From a virus (lineage: Duplodnaviria > Caudoviricetes), in the IMG/VR virus record IMGVR_UViG_3300049988_000245, positions 64,001 through 128,000 of that record: DNA of 64,000 nucleotides, one strand, 5' to 3'. The position numbers and the translations under genes are program-made. Shown here piece by piece: positions 43,135 to 52,046 of this stretch; the first letter of the stretch is position 1, and each line of letters starts with the position of its first letter. The notes beneath the pieces were generated by a model. It saw only the letters and a list, made by a program, of their open reading frames with translations. It searched no databases and was not told where the DNA came from.

Positions 43135-44262
43135 TCAGAGCTTGAAATCCGAGAAAGTACCTGAATCCACGTCCTGCTTGGTCTGACCGATCGTGTATTG
43201 CGTGATCTCGGTCTCCTGCGGTGCCACCTGCACCTCAGCACCGGAAATCCACTTGGCCGTCCACGGGAGAGGATTAGCCTTCTGCGGGTAGATCGGCGAC
43301 AGGCCGACCGCGACCAGACGCTTGTTGGCGATCCATTCGACATAGTCGGACAGGAGCGCATAGTTGAGGCCGATCATGCTCCCGTCCTTGAACAGGTACT
43401 CGGCCCACTCCTTCTCCTGGGTGACCGCGTCGGAGAACAGCTTGGTGCATTCCTCCTTGGTCTCCTCGGCGATCTTGGCGAAGTCCGGATCGTCCTGTGG
43501 TAGAATCTTGATCAGCGTCTGGGTGGCGGCGAGGTGAAGATTCTCGTCGCGGCAGATCAGCTTGATGATCTTCGCGTTGCCTTCCATCCGCTTAACCTCG
43601 GCATACGCCCAGGAGCAGGCAAAGCTCACGTAGAACCGAACACCCTCAAGGATGTTCACGCTCATGATGGCCATCCACAGAGCCTTCTTAAGCTCGTATA
43701 GGTCCACCTTGACGGATTCGCCGTTGATCGTGTGCGTACCCTCGCCGAAGAGGTTGTACAGCCCCTCCAGGCGAATCAGGTTGTCATAGTGCTCGGAGAT
43801 GTCCTTGGCGCAATCGACGATCTCGCCGATGTCCATCATCTCATCGAACACCTGGGATGGATTCGGGTAGACGTTCCTGATGATGTGGGTGTACGACCGG
43901 CTGTGAATCGTCTCCGAGAACGCCCACGTGGTGATGAACGCCTCTAGCTCGGGGAGCGAGACGATCGGCAGGAACGCGATGTTGGGGGACCGACCCTGAA
44001 CGGAGTCCAGTAGAATCTGACGCTTCAGATTCGACGTGAAGATGTGCCGTTCGTGATCAGTGAGTTCCTTGAAGTCTTTTGCGTCCTTCATCACGTCAAC
44101 CTCCTGAGGTTGCCAGAAGAACGATAGTTGCTTCTCGGTTAGTTTGTCGAACTGACGATACTTCATCGTATCGAATCGCTGAACGGAGACGCCTCCATTG
44201 GGGTCCAAGAACGCAAGCGCCTGAGTATGGTCTTTACGAGAATTTGCATCAAATACGGACAT
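43135..44262 (-). CDS. nrdB: Ribonucleotide reductase class Ia beta subunit
   Basis: FFWQPQEVD, QILLDSVQGR, ETIHSRSYTH, LEGVRFYVSFACS, DENLH. Confidence 0.98.
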   Translation of the reverse strand: MSVFDANSRKDHTQALAFLDPNGGVSVQRFDTMKYRQFDKLTEKQLSFFWQPQEVDVMKDAKDFKELTDHERHIFTSNLKRQILLDSVQGRSPNIAFLPIVSLPELEAFITTWAFSETIHSRSYTHIIRNVYPNPSQVFDEMMDIGEIVDCAKDISEHYDNLIRLEGLYNLFGEGTHTINGESVKVDLYELKKALWMAIMSVNILEGVRFYVSFACSWAYAEVKRMEGNAKIIKLICRDENLHLAATQTLIKILPQDDPDFAKIAEETKEECTKLFSDAVTQEKEWAEYLFKDGSMIGLNYALLSDYVEWIANKRLVAVGLSPIYPQKANPLPWTAKWISGAEVQVAPQETEITQYTIGQTKQDVDSGTFSDFKL

Positions 44263-44887
44263 AAGTAACACTCCAATCTTTGCAGTTGCCGCGTTTGGCG
44301 GGATAATCTTGTTTCTTCGTCAAGCGATCTCGAAAGGCTTGATAAACTTTCGGCCACGCTACCTTAAATCTATGCTCGTTTTCTTGGCACCAAGATTTTA
44401 GGCAGTCGGACGCGAAAATCTCGCCCTCCGGTGACCGAATTTCAGAAGCTTTGCTGTTTGGATTGCTGCTTCCAGTCCGAGACACCCCATACATGCCATT
44501 GGCCTCGCCGTAGTGAGGACGGTGATTGGGATGAGTCTTCCCGTACATGCCATTCCGACACCCTGACACATCCCGTCCGTTGTTCCCTCCATATGCGCTG
44601 GGGCTTATGTTGTAGAAATCCGGACTTTTGGCTGCATCATAGGAATCAAGGTAGTGCTGCTCGCGCTCCTGAATTCGAGAATCATCAACGTATTCAAGAA
44701 TGATTCGTTCAAATGAATCTCTACCATATTTTATGTAGGCTCGGCGGAAGTGCTTACCTGATCCGACGTACGAGCTAGAATCTAAGCCAGAATGTCGGCC
44801 AATATACTTCTTACCGTCAAGCTTATTAGTCCAAAGATATATGAATCCCATGAACGGATGATACCAAAGGGTATCACCCGTTCTCAA
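44249..44887 (-). CDS. Free-standing GIY-YIG (Seg-like) homing endonuclease
   Basis: GFIYLWTN..GKKYIGRH; YVGSG; NUMOD3-like NGMYGKTH repeats. Confidence 0.9.
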   Translation of the reverse strand: MRTGDTLWYHPFMGFIYLWTNKLDGKKYIGRHSGLDSSSYVGSGKHFRRAYIKYGRDSFERIILEYVDDSRIQEREQHYLDSYDAAKSPDFYNISPSAYGGNNGRDVSGCRNGMYGKTHPNHRPHYGEANGMYGVSRTGSSNPNSKASEIRSPEGEIFASDCLKSWCQENEHRFKVAWPKVYQAFRDRLTKKQDYPAKRGNCKDWSVTYVRI

Positions 44888-45244: not shown

Positions 45245-46096
45245 ATGCCGTTTAACCGTCGCGGGATTCTCGCTGGCCTCCTGGGAACGCCCCTGGGGAT
45301 CACCGCACTGAAGGCGATGCCGCTTCCGGCAGAGACCCAGAAGGCCATCGCGTTCACCCCCGAGGTGCAGAAGGCGGTCGAGAACATTCCCCCGCTCCCG
45401 ACCCCGAAACGCAATCTGCATCCGTTATTCGGATTCCAGACGATCGATGCCGAGCTTGGGTTCGCCTATACCCTGCGCAGCCGATACTCAGATGCGGTGA
45501 CCCTTGCGAATCCTGAGCCGCGCATCTCGATCCAGATTAACAAGGTGGTTGCTGGGGGTACATATTACCCGACGATGGACGCGGCCGAGGACGCGATCTT
45601 CAGTAAGTTCGCCATCACCCATCGCGAGGTGAGAAGCCCAGACAACCCCGAGCATACCAAGTTTCACCTCGTGCGGGCGGCGAACCGGATCGCCCAGACG
45701 ACCCGGCGCGGCATGGGTAACGTCATTCTCGTCCATCGGGATGACCTGCATCTACTCGATACCCCGTGGGTGGCCAACGTGATCCCCGAGCGAATCGGGC
45801 GGTGGTCGAACGTCGGGTTCACCCACAACCGAGTCTCCCAGGTCTGGGTCACCGACCGCCGTGTTCCTGCGATCCCGCACGGGAACGCGCTTGTGGGTTA
45901 TCGCGGATCGGAGTTAGACGCCCCTGCCGTTCTCACGTATCATCCGGGCTTTGGATACAGCTACGCGATGAACGAGAAGCCGGAAACCTACATGCACGTA
46001 GTCGGACTGACTGTGAAAGCCCGAGCGCCCCATACGGACGAGGCTATATGGGCGGAAGAGAAGCGGGGTGCCGTACGCCCCGTTCGCGCCGCATGA
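45245..46096 (+). CDS. Truncated major capsid (gp23-like) paralogue with twin-arginine leader
   Basis: FQT....GFAYTLRSRY, ISIQINKVV, AANRIAQTTRRGMGN, LVGYRGSELDA are gp23 motifs; N-terminus MPFNRRGILAGLLG. Confidence 0.8.
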   Translation: MPFNRRGILAGLLGTPLGITALKAMPLPAETQKAIAFTPEVQKAVENIPPLPTPKRNLHPLFGFQTIDAELGFAYTLRSRYSDAVTLANPEPRISIQINKVVAGGTYYPTMDAAEDAIFSKFAITHREVRSPDNPEHTKFHLVRAANRIAQTTRRGMGNVILVHRDDLHLLDTPWVANVIPERIGRWSNVGFTHNRVSQVWVTDRRVPAIPHGNALVGYRGSELDAPAVLTYHPGFGYSYAMNEKPETYMHVVGLTVKARAPHTDEAIWAEEKRGAVRPVRAA

Positions 46097-46287
46097 AGCG
46101 GCCTTCCTTAGAGAAGATCGCCCAGGCCCTTCCTCGCTCGCGTATCATGGCAGGCGAGTACACCTACCCGTACGCCGAGGGTGGGCCTCAGCGGCGGGTC
46201 TTCTACGCAGATGTGGGCACGCTTCCCCCGGAGGCGGCCAACCGATTCATCAAATCGCTCATGGAGAAGTACGATGGAACGTCGTAG
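46093..46287 (+). CDS. 64-aa portal (gp20)-fragment protein
   Basis: PQRRVFYADVGTLPPEAANRFIKSLMEKY matches gp20 PERRVFYIDVGN(L/M)P..KA..Y...M. Confidence 0.75.
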   Translation: MKRPSLEKIAQALPRSRIMAGEYTYPYAEGGPQRRVFYADVGTLPPEAANRFIKSLMEKYDGTS

Positions 46288-46810
46288 CCTTCTCGCGGCC
46301 GGTGCTGCCGCGATCACCGGTCTGTTCGGCGCCAAGTCGGCTCAGGCGGCGCCCTCGGGCGCTCTCACTCTGGACGAAGCCACGCGGATCGTCGTCGGCA
46401 ACGTTCGTAATCCGCCTGCCCCGGAGGAGATTCAGCGTCTCATCGCGGGGATCAATATGCAGGTAATGAACCGGCTTACCCAAGCTGGCATCGTTGACCC
46501 GCAATACGTAATGACGAGCGCCGTGGTTCGCTTCCGGGGGCAGGTGGTCGAGGCCAAGACACGTAGGCTCTCTTCGCGTTACACGTTCGGAGAGAATGTC
46601 CCGCCGATCGTGCAGGCCGAGGTCGAAGCCACGTTGGTCGAGAGCATCGTGCAGGAGATCACCGCAGAGTTGGTCCGGCCCGAGAACAAGGGTATCCAGT
46701 ATTGTCCATACGAGTTGGTCACCAGTTCCGGGGTCATCCTCGATCCGGAAACGCTCAACCCCACGATATTCTTTCTGACCCGTTTTGGGACCTTCGTGAA
46801 AGCCGCATAG
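46274..46810 (+). CDS. Mini gp23-like protein with Tat signal peptide
   Basis: VEAKTRRLSSRYTF, QEITAEL, YCPYELVTSSGVILDPETLNPTIFFLTRFG; leader MERRSLLAAGAAAITGLFGAKSAQA. Confidence 0.82.
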   Translation: MERRSLLAAGAAAITGLFGAKSAQAAPSGALTLDEATRIVVGNVRNPPAPEEIQRLIAGINMQVMNRLTQAGIVDPQYVMTSAVVRFRGQVVEAKTRRLSSRYTFGENVPPIVQAEVEATLVESIVQEITAELVRPENKGIQYCPYELVTSSGVILDPETLNPTIFFLTRFGTFVKAA

Positions 46811-46842
46811 AGTCCTGGCATCCGACCACACATGAGGAAGCG

Positions 46843-47250
46843 TTGGGCGTTCTCTTGAAGAATGCCCAACGCGACAAGCCGCGTTCGCGCATCGAACAGG
46901 TCGTTGAATGTATCAACCGGCGTGTTTTCGAAAATGTTCGGGAGATCATCAACCCACGTCTGGTCATGGTCGAGCGCGTCATGATGCTCGATTGGGCCGT
47001 CGAGGCTCGGACTCGGAATCTTCGGACACACATGGACTGCGCCGATTTTCGCCAGAGCGGCTACGTCCCCGAGATGATCGAGGCGGCCATTGACGGTATC
47101 ACGGGTGAAATTCTGGAGATGCAGGCCGGGACGAGTTTATCGTACTGTCCCTACGCGCTGGTGACCGGGCACGAGCAAATTGTCGATCCGACCACCTCTG
47201 GTGAATACGTCTATTTCCGTACCTGTTACGGATTGTACGAGCTACCTTAG
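46843..47250 (+). CDS. Mini gp23-like protein (third paralogue)
   Basis: VEARTRNL, YCPYALV..IVDPTT..VYFRTCYG; start uncertain (TTG after GAGGA). Confidence 0.7.
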   Translation: MGVLLKNAQRDKPRSRIEQVVECINRRVFENVREIINPRLVMVERVMMLDWAVEARTRNLRTHMDCADFRQSGYVPEMIEAAIDGITGEILEMQAGTSLSYCPYALVTGHEQIVDPTTSGEYVYFRTCYGLYELP

Positions 47251-47510: not shown

Positions 47511-47960
47511 TCAGCCCTCGATCTCGCCAACCTCGTAGTGATTCCCCACCTTACCACCATATTTGATTCGGAAGTGAAATGCATCGTTCGGATTCCCGAA
47601 AAAGAACACGTTGGTTAACGGGAGAACCTTGCCGTACTCGATTGGCATCTGGGATCGGAACAGGCTCACCCGCATGTGCCAGAGCGAAGATACGTTCTCG
47701 ATGATCCACTCGTGCATCTCGCGATCGTACGGATGCGCGTACAGCGTCACCATATGGGGGAACGTTTCTTCCACCCAGGCCCAATACTGCTTGTTATTGG
47801 ACGTGTTGAGTTCGTCCTTGGCGTGAACCCGTTTTGTTTCCGGGTCCATCACCGCCAGCGGATGGATATGGCCCTGGATGATGTAGAGACGGCGCAATAA
47901 CTTACGTCGTAAAATTCTTGTTATTCGAAATAATCTTGCTAGTAGCACGTTTACCCCCAT
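47511..47960 (-). CDS. FxLRW-family protein
   Basis: WIIENV...FFFGNPNDAFHFRIKYG; start uncertain. Confidence 0.65.
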   Translation of the reverse strand: MGVNVLLARLFRITRILRRKLLRRLYIIQGHIHPLAVMDPETKRVHAKDELNTSNNKQYWAWVEETFPHMVTLYAHPYDREMHEWIIENVSSLWHMRVSLFRSQMPIEYGKVLPLTNVFFFGNPNDAFHFRIKYGGKVGNHYEVGEIEG

Positions 47961-48160
47961 GACATTTTGAATTCCAGGGCTGTCGTATCGTTTTTGATCA
48001 AGACATTTCCACAAAGTGTAAGTTCCCAATCAAGAAATTCTATTCCTACGTGCTCTTTCAACCACGAGCGAATATTATATCGATCAATCTCAGATTCTGA
48101 AGTGAACATGTGTGGTAAGTCAACGTTGTGATTTGCAATTTTGTGATATCGAAACCTCAT
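47951..48160 (-). CDS. FxLRW-family small protein
   Basis: WLKEHVG...KNDTTALEFKMSWG. Confidence 0.8.
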   Translation of the reverse strand: MRFRYHKIANHNVDLPHMFTSESEIDRYNIRSWLKEHVGIEFLDWELTLCGNVLIKNDTTALEFKMSWG

Positions 48161-48414
48161 CCCCACCTCACGCGAAACGCCGTGGCATCGACATCTGTCG
48201 AGATGTCGATGGTCGTCATGTCGGCGCGCCAGCGGGGTACGACCGGCTTCACCCCGTAGGCGTAGTCGGGCGGGCCGAACTGCTCGCGGCACCAATGGAT
48301 CGCCTCGATCATGTTGGCGTTCGTGGTGAAATAGGTTGGGGAAACAATCATCTCGAAACCGAACGGGTATTTGGTTCCCTTCAGCCGATAAAGCGGTTTG
48401 AACTTGATCTCCAT
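48157..48414 (-). CDS. FxLRW-family small protein
   Basis: WCREQFG...STDVDATAFRVRWG. Confidence 0.8.
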   Translation of the reverse strand: MEIKFKPLYRLKGTKYPFGFEMIVSPTYFTTNANMIEAIHWCREQFGPPDYAYGVKPVVPRWRADMTTIDISTDVDATAFRVRWG

Positions 48415-48662
48415 CAGCACCACCGCATTTTGAAGGCGAGCGCATCGGGCTCATTTTGGAATACAATATGGAATCCGTTGCACCGGAACGCTTCGCTTTG
48501 GTATCCGATTTGATCCATGCACCAGCGTAAGGCGAGGTCGCGCGTCTCGTAGTAGCTATCTCCGTCGAAGACATGCTGTTTTAGAGAGAACTGATACGGG
48601 TAGGTTAGTTTCCGCCCTTTCCGGTCCTCGAATACAGTCGGCTCTTGAAACCAGTCCACCAT
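48414..48662 (-). CDS. FxLRW-family small protein
   Basis: YPYQF..WCMDQIG...FQNEPDALAFKMRWC. Confidence 0.8.
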   Translation of the reverse strand: MVDWFQEPTVFEDRKGRKLTYPYQFSLKQHVFDGDSYYETRDLALRWCMDQIGYQSEAFRCNGFHIVFQNEPDALAFKMRWC

Positions 48663-48928
48663 CAGCAGTACCTCAACTTGAATTCGAGCGCCTGTGGGAG
48701 GTCTCGCATATAAATGGTTCCACGGTGTCCGACGCGCCAATCCTTTCCGTGCGGGCCGACGTTCTCGACCAGCCATTCGGCGATGAAATCGGGTGTGTAA
48801 TCGGCACCGGCCCCAATATCAGGATTGGTGGTTTCAACGCAGCCCGTTCCGAACACCAGCCGATGATGGCGTGGTTGGAACATGTGCTCGTTCGCGTTCA
48901 CCACGTGATGGTATGAGATTCTGGTCAT
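48662..48928 (-). CDS. FxLRW-family small protein
   Basis: WLVENVG...MRDLPQALEFKLRYC. Confidence 0.8.
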   Translation of the reverse strand: MTRISYHHVVNANEHMFQPRHHRLVFGTGCVETTNPDIGAGADYTPDFIAEWLVENVGPHGKDWRVGHRGTIYMRDLPQALEFKLRYC

Positions 48929-49453: not shown

Positions 49454-51922
49454 TCAAATCCGGCAGGCGTCGCACTCTTCTTCGTCTGCGGAGATATTTT
49501 CGTCTTCGGCGACAGCTTCCTTCGCGTGAACGTCGATCTCACCGGCGGAATCATTGGTGTTGTTGTAGTAGAGTGTCTTACCGCCCCACTTGTAGTGCAG
49601 CATGATGTGCTTTAGCAGTTCTGACATCGGCACGCGATCGTCTTCGTAGAACTTCGGGTTATACGAGGTGTTAACCGAAATGGCCTGATCGATGTACTTC
49701 TGAAGAATCGCGCAAAGCTGAAGGTAGCCGAGCGGGCTCTTCTGGTCCCAGAGGAGTTCGTAGTTCTTCTTGAGCTTGCGAATCTCAGGAACGACCTGCT
49801 TGAGCACGCCGTGCTTGGACTGCTTCACCGAGACGTACGAGCGCGGCGCTTCGATTCCGTTGGTCGCGTTGGCGATCTGGGCGGAGGTCTCGGCGGGCAT
49901 CAGCGCCATCAGCGTGGCATTGCGGATTCCATACTTCTTCAGGTCGGCGCGGAGAGAATCCCAATCCAGGCGCTCTTCGTGGGCGATCAATTCGTCCACT
50001 TCGGCCTTGCGGGTGTCGATCGGGACGATGCCTCGATGATATTTTGTATTTTTGGAGAGTAGGCAAGCGCCCTTCTCCTTGGCAAGCTCCACCGACGCCT
50101 TAATCAAATAGTACGACCATGCCTCGGCGTACTGATCGACCAGGGCGATACCCGAGCCATCCGTGTACTTGACGCCGTTCTTCGCGAGGAAATACGCGAA
50201 GTTGATGATGCCGATACCGAGCGGACGGTACTCCTGGGTGTGCTTCTGAGCGGCCAGAACAGGGTATTCCTGATGGTCGAGCAGGTTGTCGAGGGCGCGG
50301 ACCGCAAGGCGGCAGATGCGCTCGAAATCGTGCGGCGACTTGATCACGCCCCAATTGATCGCGGAGAGCGTGCACAGGGCGATGCGGGACATGTCGTCCT
50401 CGCGCTCAACCTCGACCATGTTGGTCTTCGAGTACCAGGGCGTACCGGCCTCATCCAAACCGGATTCGGTTTTCACGGAGGAGCCGACCACATTGACGAT
50501 CGCGTTGTTCGCGCGAGCCGCTTCCATGAAGGTCACGAGTTCGGCCACCGGGATCGAGAGGCGCTGCGTCTGCACGGTACCCATCGGGGTCGTGGTGAGG
50601 GTAATCTCGCAGCAGAGGTTCGACATATGGACGGGCGCCACCTTCTCGTCGAACGACGAATGGGTGTTGGCGTTGTCCACGTTCATCAGGTAGATTCGGC
50701 CAGTGTCCTTGCGCTCGTTCACGAACGTGGTGAACAGTTCGAGGGCCTTGACCTTCTTCTTGCGCAGGCGGGTGTTGCGCTCGGCGGTCTCGTAAAGCTG
50801 CTTGAACTTGTCCTGATCGGCGAAGAACGCCTCGTACAGCCCAGGGACATCCGAAGGAGAGAACAGGGTGATCTCACCGCCAGTGATCAGTCGCTCATAG
50901 AAGAGCTTCGAGAACTGAACGCCGTAGTCCATGTGACGGACGCGGTTCTCTTCGACGCCCTTGTTGTTCTTCAGAACGAGGAGGCTTTCCACCTCAAGGT
51001 GCCAGATCGGGTAGTAGAGAGTCGCCGAGCCCTTGCGGACGCCGCCCTGGTTGCAGGAATTCACAGCCGACTGGAAATGCTTGAAGAACGGCGTCAGACC
51101 GGTGTGAGAGGCGTCACCGTTCCGGATGGGCGAGCCGAGCGCGCGGATCGAGCCCGCGCCGATGCCGATACCGGCACGCTGAGATACGTAGTCGATGACG
51201 GCGGCCGAGGTCGCGTTGATCGACTTCAGGGAGTCGCCGCACTCAATCAGGGTGCACGAGGAGTACTGACGCACAGCCGTACGCACGCCCGACATAATCG
51301 GCGTGGGGAGGGAGATTTCGTGCTTCGAGATGGACTCGTAGTAGTCCCGCACCCACTGGAGGCGGGTTTCCTTGGGGTATCGGGCGAACAGCACCGCCGC
51401 GACGAGGATGTAGAGAATCTGTGGGGTCTCAAGAATCTCGCCTGTGACGCGATTCTGGACTAGATACTTGCCGCGCATCTGCTCCATGGCGACGTAGGTC
51501 AGCGCCATGTCTCGCTCATGATTGACGAATCCGCCGATCTCGTCCCACTCGGACTCGGTGTAGTCGGTGAGCAGCGCGGGGTCGTAAAAACCCTTCTCGA
51601 CGTTCGTCTTGATCACGTCGAACAGGCGAAGCGCCTGAAAGCGGCCATGGACCTGCTTGCGCAGATGATAGTTGACCAGACGACCAGCAACGTACTGGTA
51701 GTTGGGGTGATCTTCGGAGATCAGGTCGGCCGCAGCCTTGATCAGAGTCTCTTGAATATCAGAGGTCTTCATACCATCGAAGAACTGAATCTGCGAACGC
51801 AGTTCGACTTCGGATGCGCTGACGCCGGACAAGCCCTCGGTCGCCCAGAAGACGACCTTGTGCAGCTTTTCCAGATTCAGGGGTTCTTTAGTGCCATCAC
51901 GCTTCGTGACGTTGATCTTCAT
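49454..51922 (-). CDS. nrdA: Ribonucleotide reductase class Ia alpha subunit (ATP cone)
   Basis: VTKRDG, LPTPIMSG, YSSCTL, NLCCE, ALCTL, LMPAETS, C-terminal CDAC. Confidence 0.98.
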   Translation of the reverse strand: MKINVTKRDGTKEPLNLEKLHKVVFWATEGLSGVSASEVELRSQIQFFDGMKTSDIQETLIKAAADLISEDHPNYQYVAGRLVNYHLRKQVHGRFQALRLFDVIKTNVEKGFYDPALLTDYTESEWDEIGGFVNHERDMALTYVAMEQMRGKYLVQNRVTGEILETPQILYILVAAVLFARYPKETRLQWVRDYYESISKHEISLPTPIMSGVRTAVRQYSSCTLIECGDSLKSINATSAAVIDYVSQRAGIGIGAGSIRALGSPIRNGDASHTGLTPFFKHFQSAVNSCNQGGVRKGSATLYYPIWHLEVESLLVLKNNKGVEENRVRHMDYGVQFSKLFYERLITGGEITLFSPSDVPGLYEAFFADQDKFKQLYETAERNTRLRKKKVKALELFTTFVNERKDTGRIYLMNVDNANTHSSFDEKVAPVHMSNLCCEITLTTTPMGTVQTQRLSIPVAELVTFMEAARANNAIVNVVGSSVKTESGLDEAGTPWYSKTNMVEVEREDDMSRIALCTLSAINWGVIKSPHDFERICRLAVRALDNLLDHQEYPVLAAQKHTQEYRPLGIGIINFAYFLAKNGVKYTDGSGIALVDQYAEAWSYYLIKASVELAKEKGACLLSKNTKYHRGIVPIDTRKAEVDELIAHEERLDWDSLRADLKKYGIRNATLMALMPAETSAQIANATNGIEAPRSYVSVKQSKHGVLKQVVPEIRKLKKNYELLWDQKSPLGYLQLCAILQKYIDQAISVNTSYNPKFYEDDRVPMSELLKHIMLHYKWGGKTLYYNNTNDSAGEIDVHAKEAVAEDENISADEEECDACRI

Positions 51923-52046
51923 ACCAATATCCATCTGTAAAATGCTCTCTCTAAATTTAAACGGGAGTTATTTACGCGAGTAAAAACCTGTTTAAAGTCA
52001 CAGAGAATAAAGAAAAATCTGAGATAAAATGAGAGAGCAAAGCCTA

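Follow-up and report, generated by a model that had tools for sequence, protein, structure and literature searches.

What are four small genes that resemble pieces of phage head proteins doing among genes for nucleotide metabolism? We addressed this question for a locus in a viral genome from the IMG/VR database. The window that was analyzed is 64 kb of DNA (bases 64001-128000 of the 265,895-bp record IMGVR_UViG_3300049988_000245, estimated by CheckV to be ~57% complete), and gene coordinates are given in window numbering. We found that positions 45245-47250 hold one translationally coupled accessory operon and that all four of its products, g1 through g4, are cut-down derivatives of head proteins: g1, g3 and g4 of the major capsid protein (MCP) and g2 of the portal. 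Two of them, g1 and g3, also begin with predicted twin-arginine (Tat) leaders.

Four coupled genes between nrdB and nrdA

The cassette lies between nrdB (43135-44271) and nrdA (49454-51934), both on the minus strand, and is surrounded by nucleotide-metabolism genes on the opposite strand, not by a head module. An earlier reading made from the DNA letters (the sequence-only reading) had described four coupled plus-strand genes within a minus-strand region, and the coordinates of the open reading frames (ORFs) confirm that arrangement. The genes, all on the plus strand, are g1 (45245..46096; 283 amino acids, aa), g2 (46093..46287; 64 aa), g3 (46274..46810; 178 aa) and g4 (46843..47250; 135 aa). 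The start of g2 overlaps the stop of g1 as ATGA, g3 overlaps g2 by 14 nt, and the frame of g4 opens at the g3 stop. The likeliest start of g4, and the sole canonical one, is the TTG at 46843, which is preceded by GAGGAA; homology to g3 begins upstream of it, at 46828.

GC content in the cassette is 0.61-0.63, compared to ~0.48-0.55 in the flanks. GC at the codon positions fits all four frames (~0.6 at position 1, 0.39-0.48 at position 2 and 0.68-0.77 at position 3), including the short g2 (0.585/0.477/0.769) and g4 (0.60/0.39/0.68). A scan for sigma-70 promoters and terminators found nothing convincing upstream of g1.

We considered a fusion of g3 and g4 through a -1 frameshift and rejected it. 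There is no slippery site in 46702-46810, and the g4 counterpart in a distantly related contig (L118, described below) has its own ATG.

Three proteins derived from the major capsid protein

The Pfam and PHROGs matches agreed: g1, g3 and g4 matched major head families and g2 a portal family. Against Pfam Gp23 (cut-off 24.4 bits), g1 scored 26 bits (E 7.7e-6) and g3 scored 39.6 bits (E 5.5e-10), the latter in two stretches. The E value for g4 was 0.046. This protein matched the profile of the g3 family over its whole length (E 8e-31), and its membership in the family rests on that profile, not on the Gp23 cut-off. An NCBIfam search of the cassette proteins gave no matches. The sequence-only reading had called these three genes miniatures derived from T4 gp23. 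Their homology to gp23 held up. The description as a miniature fragment did not hold for g1.

Individual parts of g1 could be placed on capsid proteins of two cultured phages, Sinorhizobium phage Phosso and Xanthomonas phage XacN1, by BLASTP. Residues 61-85 match residues 92-116 of the 408-aa Phosso protein (N-arm), and residues 144-228 match 259-346 of the same MCP (A domain), with a weak match onward to the C-terminal strands of the P domain. Residues 133-265 match 298-440 of the XacN1 capsid protein. The AlphaFold2 (AF2) model of g1 had a predicted local distance difference test (pLDDT) score of 65.7, weaker than that of g3 (88.7). In an exhaustive structure search by way of these models, g1 matched T4 gp24 with Z 10.5 (207 residues aligned) and gp23 with Z 9.3, and HK97-fold proteins filled 50 of the 50 best rows. 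Because the alignment with gp24 spans 207 residues and all 50 rows are HK97-fold proteins, g1 is, by its model, a compact complete HK97 fold and not a fragment. It is the only protein of the cassette with all of the N-arm, E-loop, P domain and A domain.

In contrast, g3 and g4 lack large parts of the MCP. BLASTP placed residues 90-133 of g3 on the spine helix of the Phosso capsid protein (residues 170-215) and residues 143-172 on its P-domain hairpin (348-377), the latter at 57% identity. That is, the sequence jumps from MCP position 215 to 348. g3 and g4 keep the N-terminal helices, N-arm, spine helix and P-domain hairpin, and are thus MCPs with two internal deletions, one of the E-loop/insertion region and one of the whole A domain. 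We call them minis, or mini-MCPs. The motifs that had been pointed out in g3 (VEAKTRRL, QEITAE and YCPY..DP..F.TR.G) are present, with degenerate forms in g4, and the 215-to-348 jump bears out the claim that the segment between them is missing. In the family alignment, an H-P-L-I-x-N helix at the N-terminus of the minis and a V-M-t-g-P-V motif correspond to the LLEN motif and N-arm of MCPs. g4, a tandem paralogue of mature g3 with no leader, is 28% identical to g3, retains the near-invariant Glu, Pro and Phe of the family, and is sister to g3 plus family member P0002 on a long branch of the family tree.

The g3 model has two N-terminal helices followed by beta-alpha-beta-beta. Its best structural match was again T4 gp24 (Z 7.5, rmsd 3.6, 128 residues spread over chain positions 11-386), and 44 of the 50 best rows were HK97-fold capsid proteins or encapsulins, so the comparison with HK97-fold structures that had been proposed gave matches for both g1 and g3, with gp24 first. 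A Foldseek search of the PDB with g3 found only a 37-residue hairpin match to gp23. A search of the AFDB clusters gave nothing meaningful and no cellular look-alike.

A fragment of the portal clip

g2 is leaderless and corresponds to a small part of the portal, the end of stem helix alpha5, the clip tip and helix alpha6. It matched Pfam Portal_T4 at 23.9 bits (E 2.1e-5; cut-off 22.9) over profile positions 204-233 of 433, and it aligns to Phosso portal residues 256-303, equivalent to T4 gp20 258-311. The homologous core, RRVFYADVG-TLPPE-helix, is at residues 32-61 (46186..46275, plus strand). Gene 2 had been described as just the RRVFYxDVG segment of gp20; the motif is present and the Portal_T4 match covers the clip segment alone. 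At ~1/8 of a portal, g2 does not have the wing, stem, clip and crown architecture of a portal subunit of ~500-600 aa. The sequence-only reading had considered all of the short proteins unlikely to build capsids on their own. g2 and, without an A domain, g3 and g4 could not form a shell or a portal by themselves.

The segment retained in g2 is one with known binding activity in T4. In T4 gp20, residues 258-311 run from the end of stem helix alpha5 through the beginning of the clip domain (279-358). The clip lies outside the capsid, where the terminase gp17 and the neck dock on it, and tip residues N291, M292, R295 and K296 contact gp17 (PMC4493910). According to work cited in the same paper, gp20 residues 288-311 as a peptide bind to gp17 and block in vitro packaging. 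g2 stops right after the corresponding helix, and judging from sequence it is a natural small protein that ends in the homologous segment. Because it covers this portal segment, interference by g2 with packaging or assembly is biochemically plausible by analogy to the T4 peptide. g2 differs from the peptide at its tip, which is PPE instead of the A-R-K of T4, and its homologue in L118 has a Tat leader.

We also considered that a single capsid gene might have been split by an intron, an intein or a homing endonuclease. We excluded this for three reasons. The order of the pieces (MCP 259-346, portal, MCP 170-215 plus 348-377) is not that of a colinear gene, every piece begins with a start or leader of its own, and their contents overlap.

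Twin-arginine leaders and predicted export

The leader of g1 (45245..45316, plus strand; 24 aa) begins M-P-F-N-R-R-G-I-L and continues with a 16-aa h-region of Gly, Ala and Leu; its c-region contains a Lys, and A-L-K-A precedes the predicted cut. That of g3 (46274..46348, plus strand; 25 aa) begins M-E-R-R-S-L-L, followed by a 16-aa Gly/Ala-rich h-region and K-S-A-Q-A before the predicted cut. The features of a Tat leader (RR followed by two hydrophobic residues, a moderately hydrophobic h-region, a basic c-region residue and AxA) are present in g1, g3, their orthologues and 12 family members. The g1 leader is kept in its orthologue in a related contig (L008), and the g3 leader in P0002. Of 7457 candidate starts across the 266-kb record, 6 fitted a crude Tat pattern, and only g1 and g3 among these sit on long ATG-started ORFs with homologues. 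A feature search of the ESM-Atlas with g3 was dominated by Tat-leader families, look-alikes that are driven by the leader and are a lead only. The short-leader models of NCBIfam and Pfam did not match g1 or g3; the leader call rests on reading of the sequence and the Atlas search. The most conserved part of g1 among three orthologues is a Pro-rich stretch after the predicted cleavage site (residues 25-58, 45317-45420; LPAETQKAIA..PEV....PP.PTPKR), which may be a linear binding motif.

We read the two leaders as genuine cleavable Tat signals. It is likely that the leader-bearing proteins fold in the cytoplasm and are then exported and cleaved by the Tat pathway of the host, and most proteins of the cassettes here and in L118 probably go to the periplasm. 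We found no TatA/B/E or TatC encoded in the 266-kb record. Periplasmic DNA binding is an unlikely role given that mature g3, g4 and all six L118 proteins are acidic (pI 4.8-6.1).

Predicted export bears on the proposal, first made in the sequence-only reading, that the proteins are decoys or assembly poisons. In this explanation the mimics would act in the cytoplasm, before or without export. The portal-clip peptide would occupy the docking site of terminase or neck, and MCPs without an A domain would cap MCP lattices or soak up proteins able to recognize MCP or portal, for example Avs-, CapRel- or Lit-type sensors, assembly proteins of competitors, or redirecting proteins of satellites. A Tat leader, where there is one, would serve to hold the complex at the membrane or to get rid of it. 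The gp17-binding and packaging-inhibiting activity cited for the T4 peptide, and the position of g2 on gp20 258-311, favor this explanation (PMC4493910).

CapRel, Lit, Avs4, terminase and capsid assembly are all cytoplasmic. However, cleavable Tat leaders are present on 2 of the 4 proteins here, on both proteins in one relative (L007) and on 5 of 6 in L118, which argues for real export. Because most of the proteins have predicted leaders, a simple cytoplasmic decoy or poison fits only with an extra assumption. In addition, a poison would also strike the phage's own conserved MCP, and binding by a decoy might set off the very sensor that it occupies.

The cassette in related phages

A synteny survey, which had been suggested as a check, showed that at least three related phage contigs share the cassette and its location. 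The first (L007, 7.4 kb) has orthologues of g1 (63% identical) and g3 (58%) in the same place relative to nrdA, without g2 and g4. A second (L008) has the order nrdB-KTSC-g1 with a g1 orthologue that is 73% identical. These two different jumbo-phage contigs (SEGU01000033 and SEGU01000946) are binned in a metagenome-assembled genome (GCA_004144115.1) labelled Verrucomicrobiaceae, which is either phage contamination or a hint about the host.

The third (L118) is a distant 9.1-kb contig from a viral metagenome. Its nrdB is followed by six plus-strand genes, five of them with Tat leaders: a near-full MCP (a; 333 aa), a g1-like protein (b; 285 aa), a portal fragment (c82; 82 aa; Portal_T4 E 3e-14; 48% identical to g2), a mini (d; 199 aa), a leaderless mini (e; 150 aa), and a piece consisting of spine helix and A domain (247 aa). 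A further locus (L023) has two Tat minis in tandem.

Could these proteins help to build the phage's own head? They could be minor capsid or cement proteins, or membrane tethers that use their Tat leaders to dock nascent proheads at the inner membrane. Jumbo capsids often include extra MCP-related minor proteins, the minis retain the LLEN-like motif and N-arm of the MCP N-terminus, and membrane-associated initiation of proheads is established for T4 and SPP1 (PMC13212656). Against this, the cassette is outside the head module and its gene content ranges from 2 to 6 among close relatives. Five other jumbo T4-like genomes, of which two are complete, have the normal MCP but no minis. The AxA cleavage sites imply release rather than anchoring, and the genes evolve far faster than expected of structural genes. 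We consider this role unlikely.

Compared to T4 gp23/gp24 (PF07068, HK97 fold), the cassette proteins have sequence homology, with the whole fold in g1 and the N-arm, spine helix and P-domain hairpin in g3 and g4. They differ in the Tat leaders of g1 and g3, the location outside a head module, the variable copy number and the fast evolution. A functional MCP gene is in a head module with those for portal, scaffold, protease and terminase, and its product is cytoplasmic with no export signal; the cassette has no such setting.

It is also conceivable that exported proteins assemble into an HK97-type structure in the periplasm, such as an encapsulin-like cage or lattice, with g1 and L118 proteins a and b forming the shell and the minis as accessories. 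Mature g1 (~259 aa) is the size of HK97 gp5* and of encapsulins (~260-280 aa) and has a complete fold, Tat carries folded cargo, and each cassette has several different fold variants. But many loci have a mini alone, there is no evident cargo gene, and the periplasm is narrow. Co-folding of g1 (residues 57-240) with g3 (28-178) gave no support (score 0.01), a result that is no verdict either way. Encapsulins themselves are cytoplasmic and leaderless, have cargo genes, and are not of the gp23 type by sequence. We think that a periplasmic shell is very improbable.

Selection on the cassette

By sequence comparison, the genes are under purifying selection and evolve quickly. dN/dS was 0.20-0.24 for g1 (L007 and L008 orthologues) and 0.29 for g3 (L007). 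dN was ~0.28-0.30 for cassette genes compared to 0.03 for nrdA, a difference of ~10-fold. The dS of g1 and g3 relative to L007 (~1.0-1.2) was about twice that of nrdA and a flanking 86-aa gene (~0.5), and it was raised along with the GC content. The higher dS suggests allele exchange or a different history of the cassette.

We also compared a variant from a silage metagenome that is 1-5% diverged. All four ORFs are open in it, and the sole indel is an in-frame deletion of 3 nt in g4. Ratios of synonymous to non-synonymous changes among the differences listed were 7:4 for g1, 1:1 for g2, 1:5 for g3 and 4:11 for g4. These are small numbers, and there are 12 further differences beyond those listed.

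These data bear on whether the cassette does anything at all. The genes could be functionless partial duplicates in decay, or silent donors for gene conversion. Their content is fragmentary, g2 and g4 are missing from L007, and g4 has the excess of non-synonymous changes between close strains given above (11 to 4, among the differences listed). On the other hand, all frames are open with the GC structure of coding sequence, dN/dS is 0.2-0.3 with conserved leaders, and genes including the portal fragment are at the same locus in distant relatives, with a large family beyond. There is little chance that the cassette is without function. The gene-conversion version was rejected: the pieces are too diverged from MCPs (40-60% aa identity over 30-50 aa) and there is selection at the protein level.

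A wider family of small capsid-derived proteins

A profile search of 1.84 billion representatives found 107 matches. About 45 of these are 135-210 aa and cover the whole profile. Tandem fusions of two and three copies also matched, and full-length MCPs matched in two stretches only. All of the small members are metagenomic, several on contigs of 85-295 kb. A locus search with a narrower family alignment found full-length MCPs only. In one case, a leaderless mini (P0012) is directly downstream of a gene for a 210-aa outer-membrane beta-barrel protein of the Gcw_chp type (PF09694; L025/L026:5277-5909), a possible link to the envelope.

Blastn of the region against 50,697 phage records gave no match. 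With tblastn against the phage records, g1 matched nothing and g3 matched only the MCP genes of Phosso (469 kb) and XacN1 (385 kb), so no cultured phage there has the cassette. Phosso and XacN1 do have small ORFs in which MCP pieces are fused to unrelated sequence, none with a Tat leader. In Phosso (PV764938.1) these are gp170 (113923-114303) and a region upstream of the annotated start of gp276 (182280-182855); the real MCP of Phosso is near its portal and TerS. In XacN1 (AP018399.1) they are the C-terminus of ORF261 (151297-152082) and ORF451 (316250-316474). The XacN1 pieces are nearer to the MCP of XacN1 than to that of Phosso (62% vs 48%). The family is apparently sporadic, fast-evolving and restricted to phages. 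In full-text searches of the literature we found no description of Tat-tagged or truncated paralogues of capsid or portal proteins, and no described system accounts for this gene family.

The source phage and neighboring genes

NrdA of the record is nearest to that of T4-like and jumbo phages. Because of this affinity and the matches of g3 to Phosso and XacN1 capsid genes, the source is a jumbo myovirus, distantly T4-like, with a genome of roughly 450 kb. Leaf and silage metagenomes from several studies contain near-identical DNA. There is no full-length gp23 or gp20 in the 265,895-bp record; since it is incomplete, these genes are presumably in the missing part of the genome.

The record does have a fifth capsid fragment outside the window, a 153-aa ORF (g5; G000 175996-176457, equal to L001:1480-1941) that matches Gp23. 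The match to profile positions 4-46 is at residues 8-50 (E 3.5e-12), and Phosso MCP 74-125 shares 54% identity with residues 10-61. This N-arm is fused to the C-terminal domain of a large 'AFxFKMRW' paralogue family of the genome, and the protein ends in DAFGFKVRW. The MCP-matching region is presumably equivalent to the Gol peptide of T4.

Two features near the cassette are worth recording. A minus-strand ORF for a GIY-YIG (SegE-like) homing endonuclease is between nrdB and the KTSC gene (44249-44887; Pfam E 3e-6). L008, in which nrdB and KTSC adjoin, lacks this ORF, a probable mobile insertion. Immediately beyond the downstream end of the cassette (47511-48928, minus strand) there is an array of small paralogous ORFs that end in ..AF(K/R)(M/L/V)R(W/Y)...

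A possible role in conflict at the cell envelope

Two different head proteins have been trimmed behind the same type of leader in one operon. Because of this, the function seems to depend both on likeness to head proteins and, in these lineages at least, on leaving the cytoplasm. The explanation that we favor, tentatively, is that the products are exported, assembly-incompetent head mimics used in conflict between phages or between phage and host. They would not take part in construction of this phage's head. They would act at the inner membrane or in the periplasm, presenting surfaces of the MCP N-arm, the edge or inner face of the P domain, and the portal clip, and would bind and neutralize foreign partners of those surfaces. 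The likeliest partners would be head-associated proteins released into the envelope by superinfecting related phages.

The leaderless g2 and g4 may ride along like the Tat 'hitchhiker' subunits of hydrogenases (small and large subunits) and DmsAB, where a leader-bearing gene is beside that for a leaderless partner; g3/g4, g1/g2 and L118 d/e have this arrangement. The cassette differs from those systems in that no cofactor is involved and the complex is putative.

The logic would be like that of T4 Spackle or Ltp of TP-J34, with head mimicry providing the binding. Among the characterized accessory proteins that lytic phages export, most serve in superinfection exclusion or lysis control. The similarity to superinfection-exclusion proteins (T4 Spackle and Imm, TP-J34 Ltp, T5 Llp), small accessory proteins that act across the inner membrane against incoming phages, is an analogy only. 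There is no relation in sequence or fold, and those proteins have signals of the Sec or lipoprotein type and an origin other than head proteins. Capsid homologues of satellites that interfere with assembly of the helper (Ccm of SaPIbov5 and the capsids of cf-PICIs) are HK97-fold paralogues with a use beyond the normal shell of their owner, and are among the structural matches. In contrast to the cassette proteins, they are complete folds that co-assemble in the cytoplasm without an export leader and are encoded by the satellite.

Several observations weigh against this explanation. About two thirds of the single-domain family members, and all tandem fusions, are leaderless (leaders are present in ~12 of 35), and at one locus (L119) neither the double mini nor the g1-like protein that follows it has a leader. 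Since the family tree calls for at least four gains or losses of the leader, the core function may reside in the cytoplasm. Scaffold, terminase, neck and immune sensors, which are known to interact with the MCP or the clip, are cytoplasmic. In virions the clip points outward, so that an infecting phage would not bring a clip-binding protein into the periplasm. The clip tip is also unlike that of real portals: it is G-T-L-P-P-E in g2 and G-T-M-P-P-E in the L118 homologue, compared to His/Arg-Lys at the matching positions in 3 of 6 real portals, and the target may be a different one. Finally, no RNA run contains the stretch.

Some of these points favor a cytoplasmic sponge or poison, as do the leaderless MCP pieces fused to other domains in g5, Phosso gp170 and XacN1 ORF261/ORF451, the greater similarity of the XacN1 pieces to their own MCP, and fast evolution, which suits an arms race. 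The altered clip tip counts against that explanation as well. With the predicted leaders, the risk to the phage's own MCP and the chance of triggering a sensor, we regard it as rather doubtful, although the likeliest rival to the exported head mimics.

What the cassette may mean for phage biology

No phage proteins are more conserved than those of the head, which are also the chief patterns that bacterial immunity senses. A conserved, selected operon that retains chosen surfaces of capsid and portal, mostly with predicted export, is beyond any described system. One practical consequence is for annotation: weak Gp23 and Portal_T4 matches in small ORFs of jumbo phages represent a real family and are not noise. 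These natural minimal HK97 sub-domains, including a beta-alpha-beta-beta core without an A domain, could also bear on the origin of the fold.

It is possible, although we would not count on it, that parts of capsid and portal have been converted by their phages, more than once, into Tat-exported effectors, an envelope toolkit of head mimicry against other phages or host defenses that includes a natural version of the terminase-binding clip peptide. The mechanism could turn out to be a novel way of excluding other phages or evading immunity, could show why Tat, an exporter of folded proteins, was recruited, and could yield natural peptide inhibitors of DNA packaging. If true, this reading would be a new principle, the export of self-mimics, and would add a new and widespread family of phage proteins.

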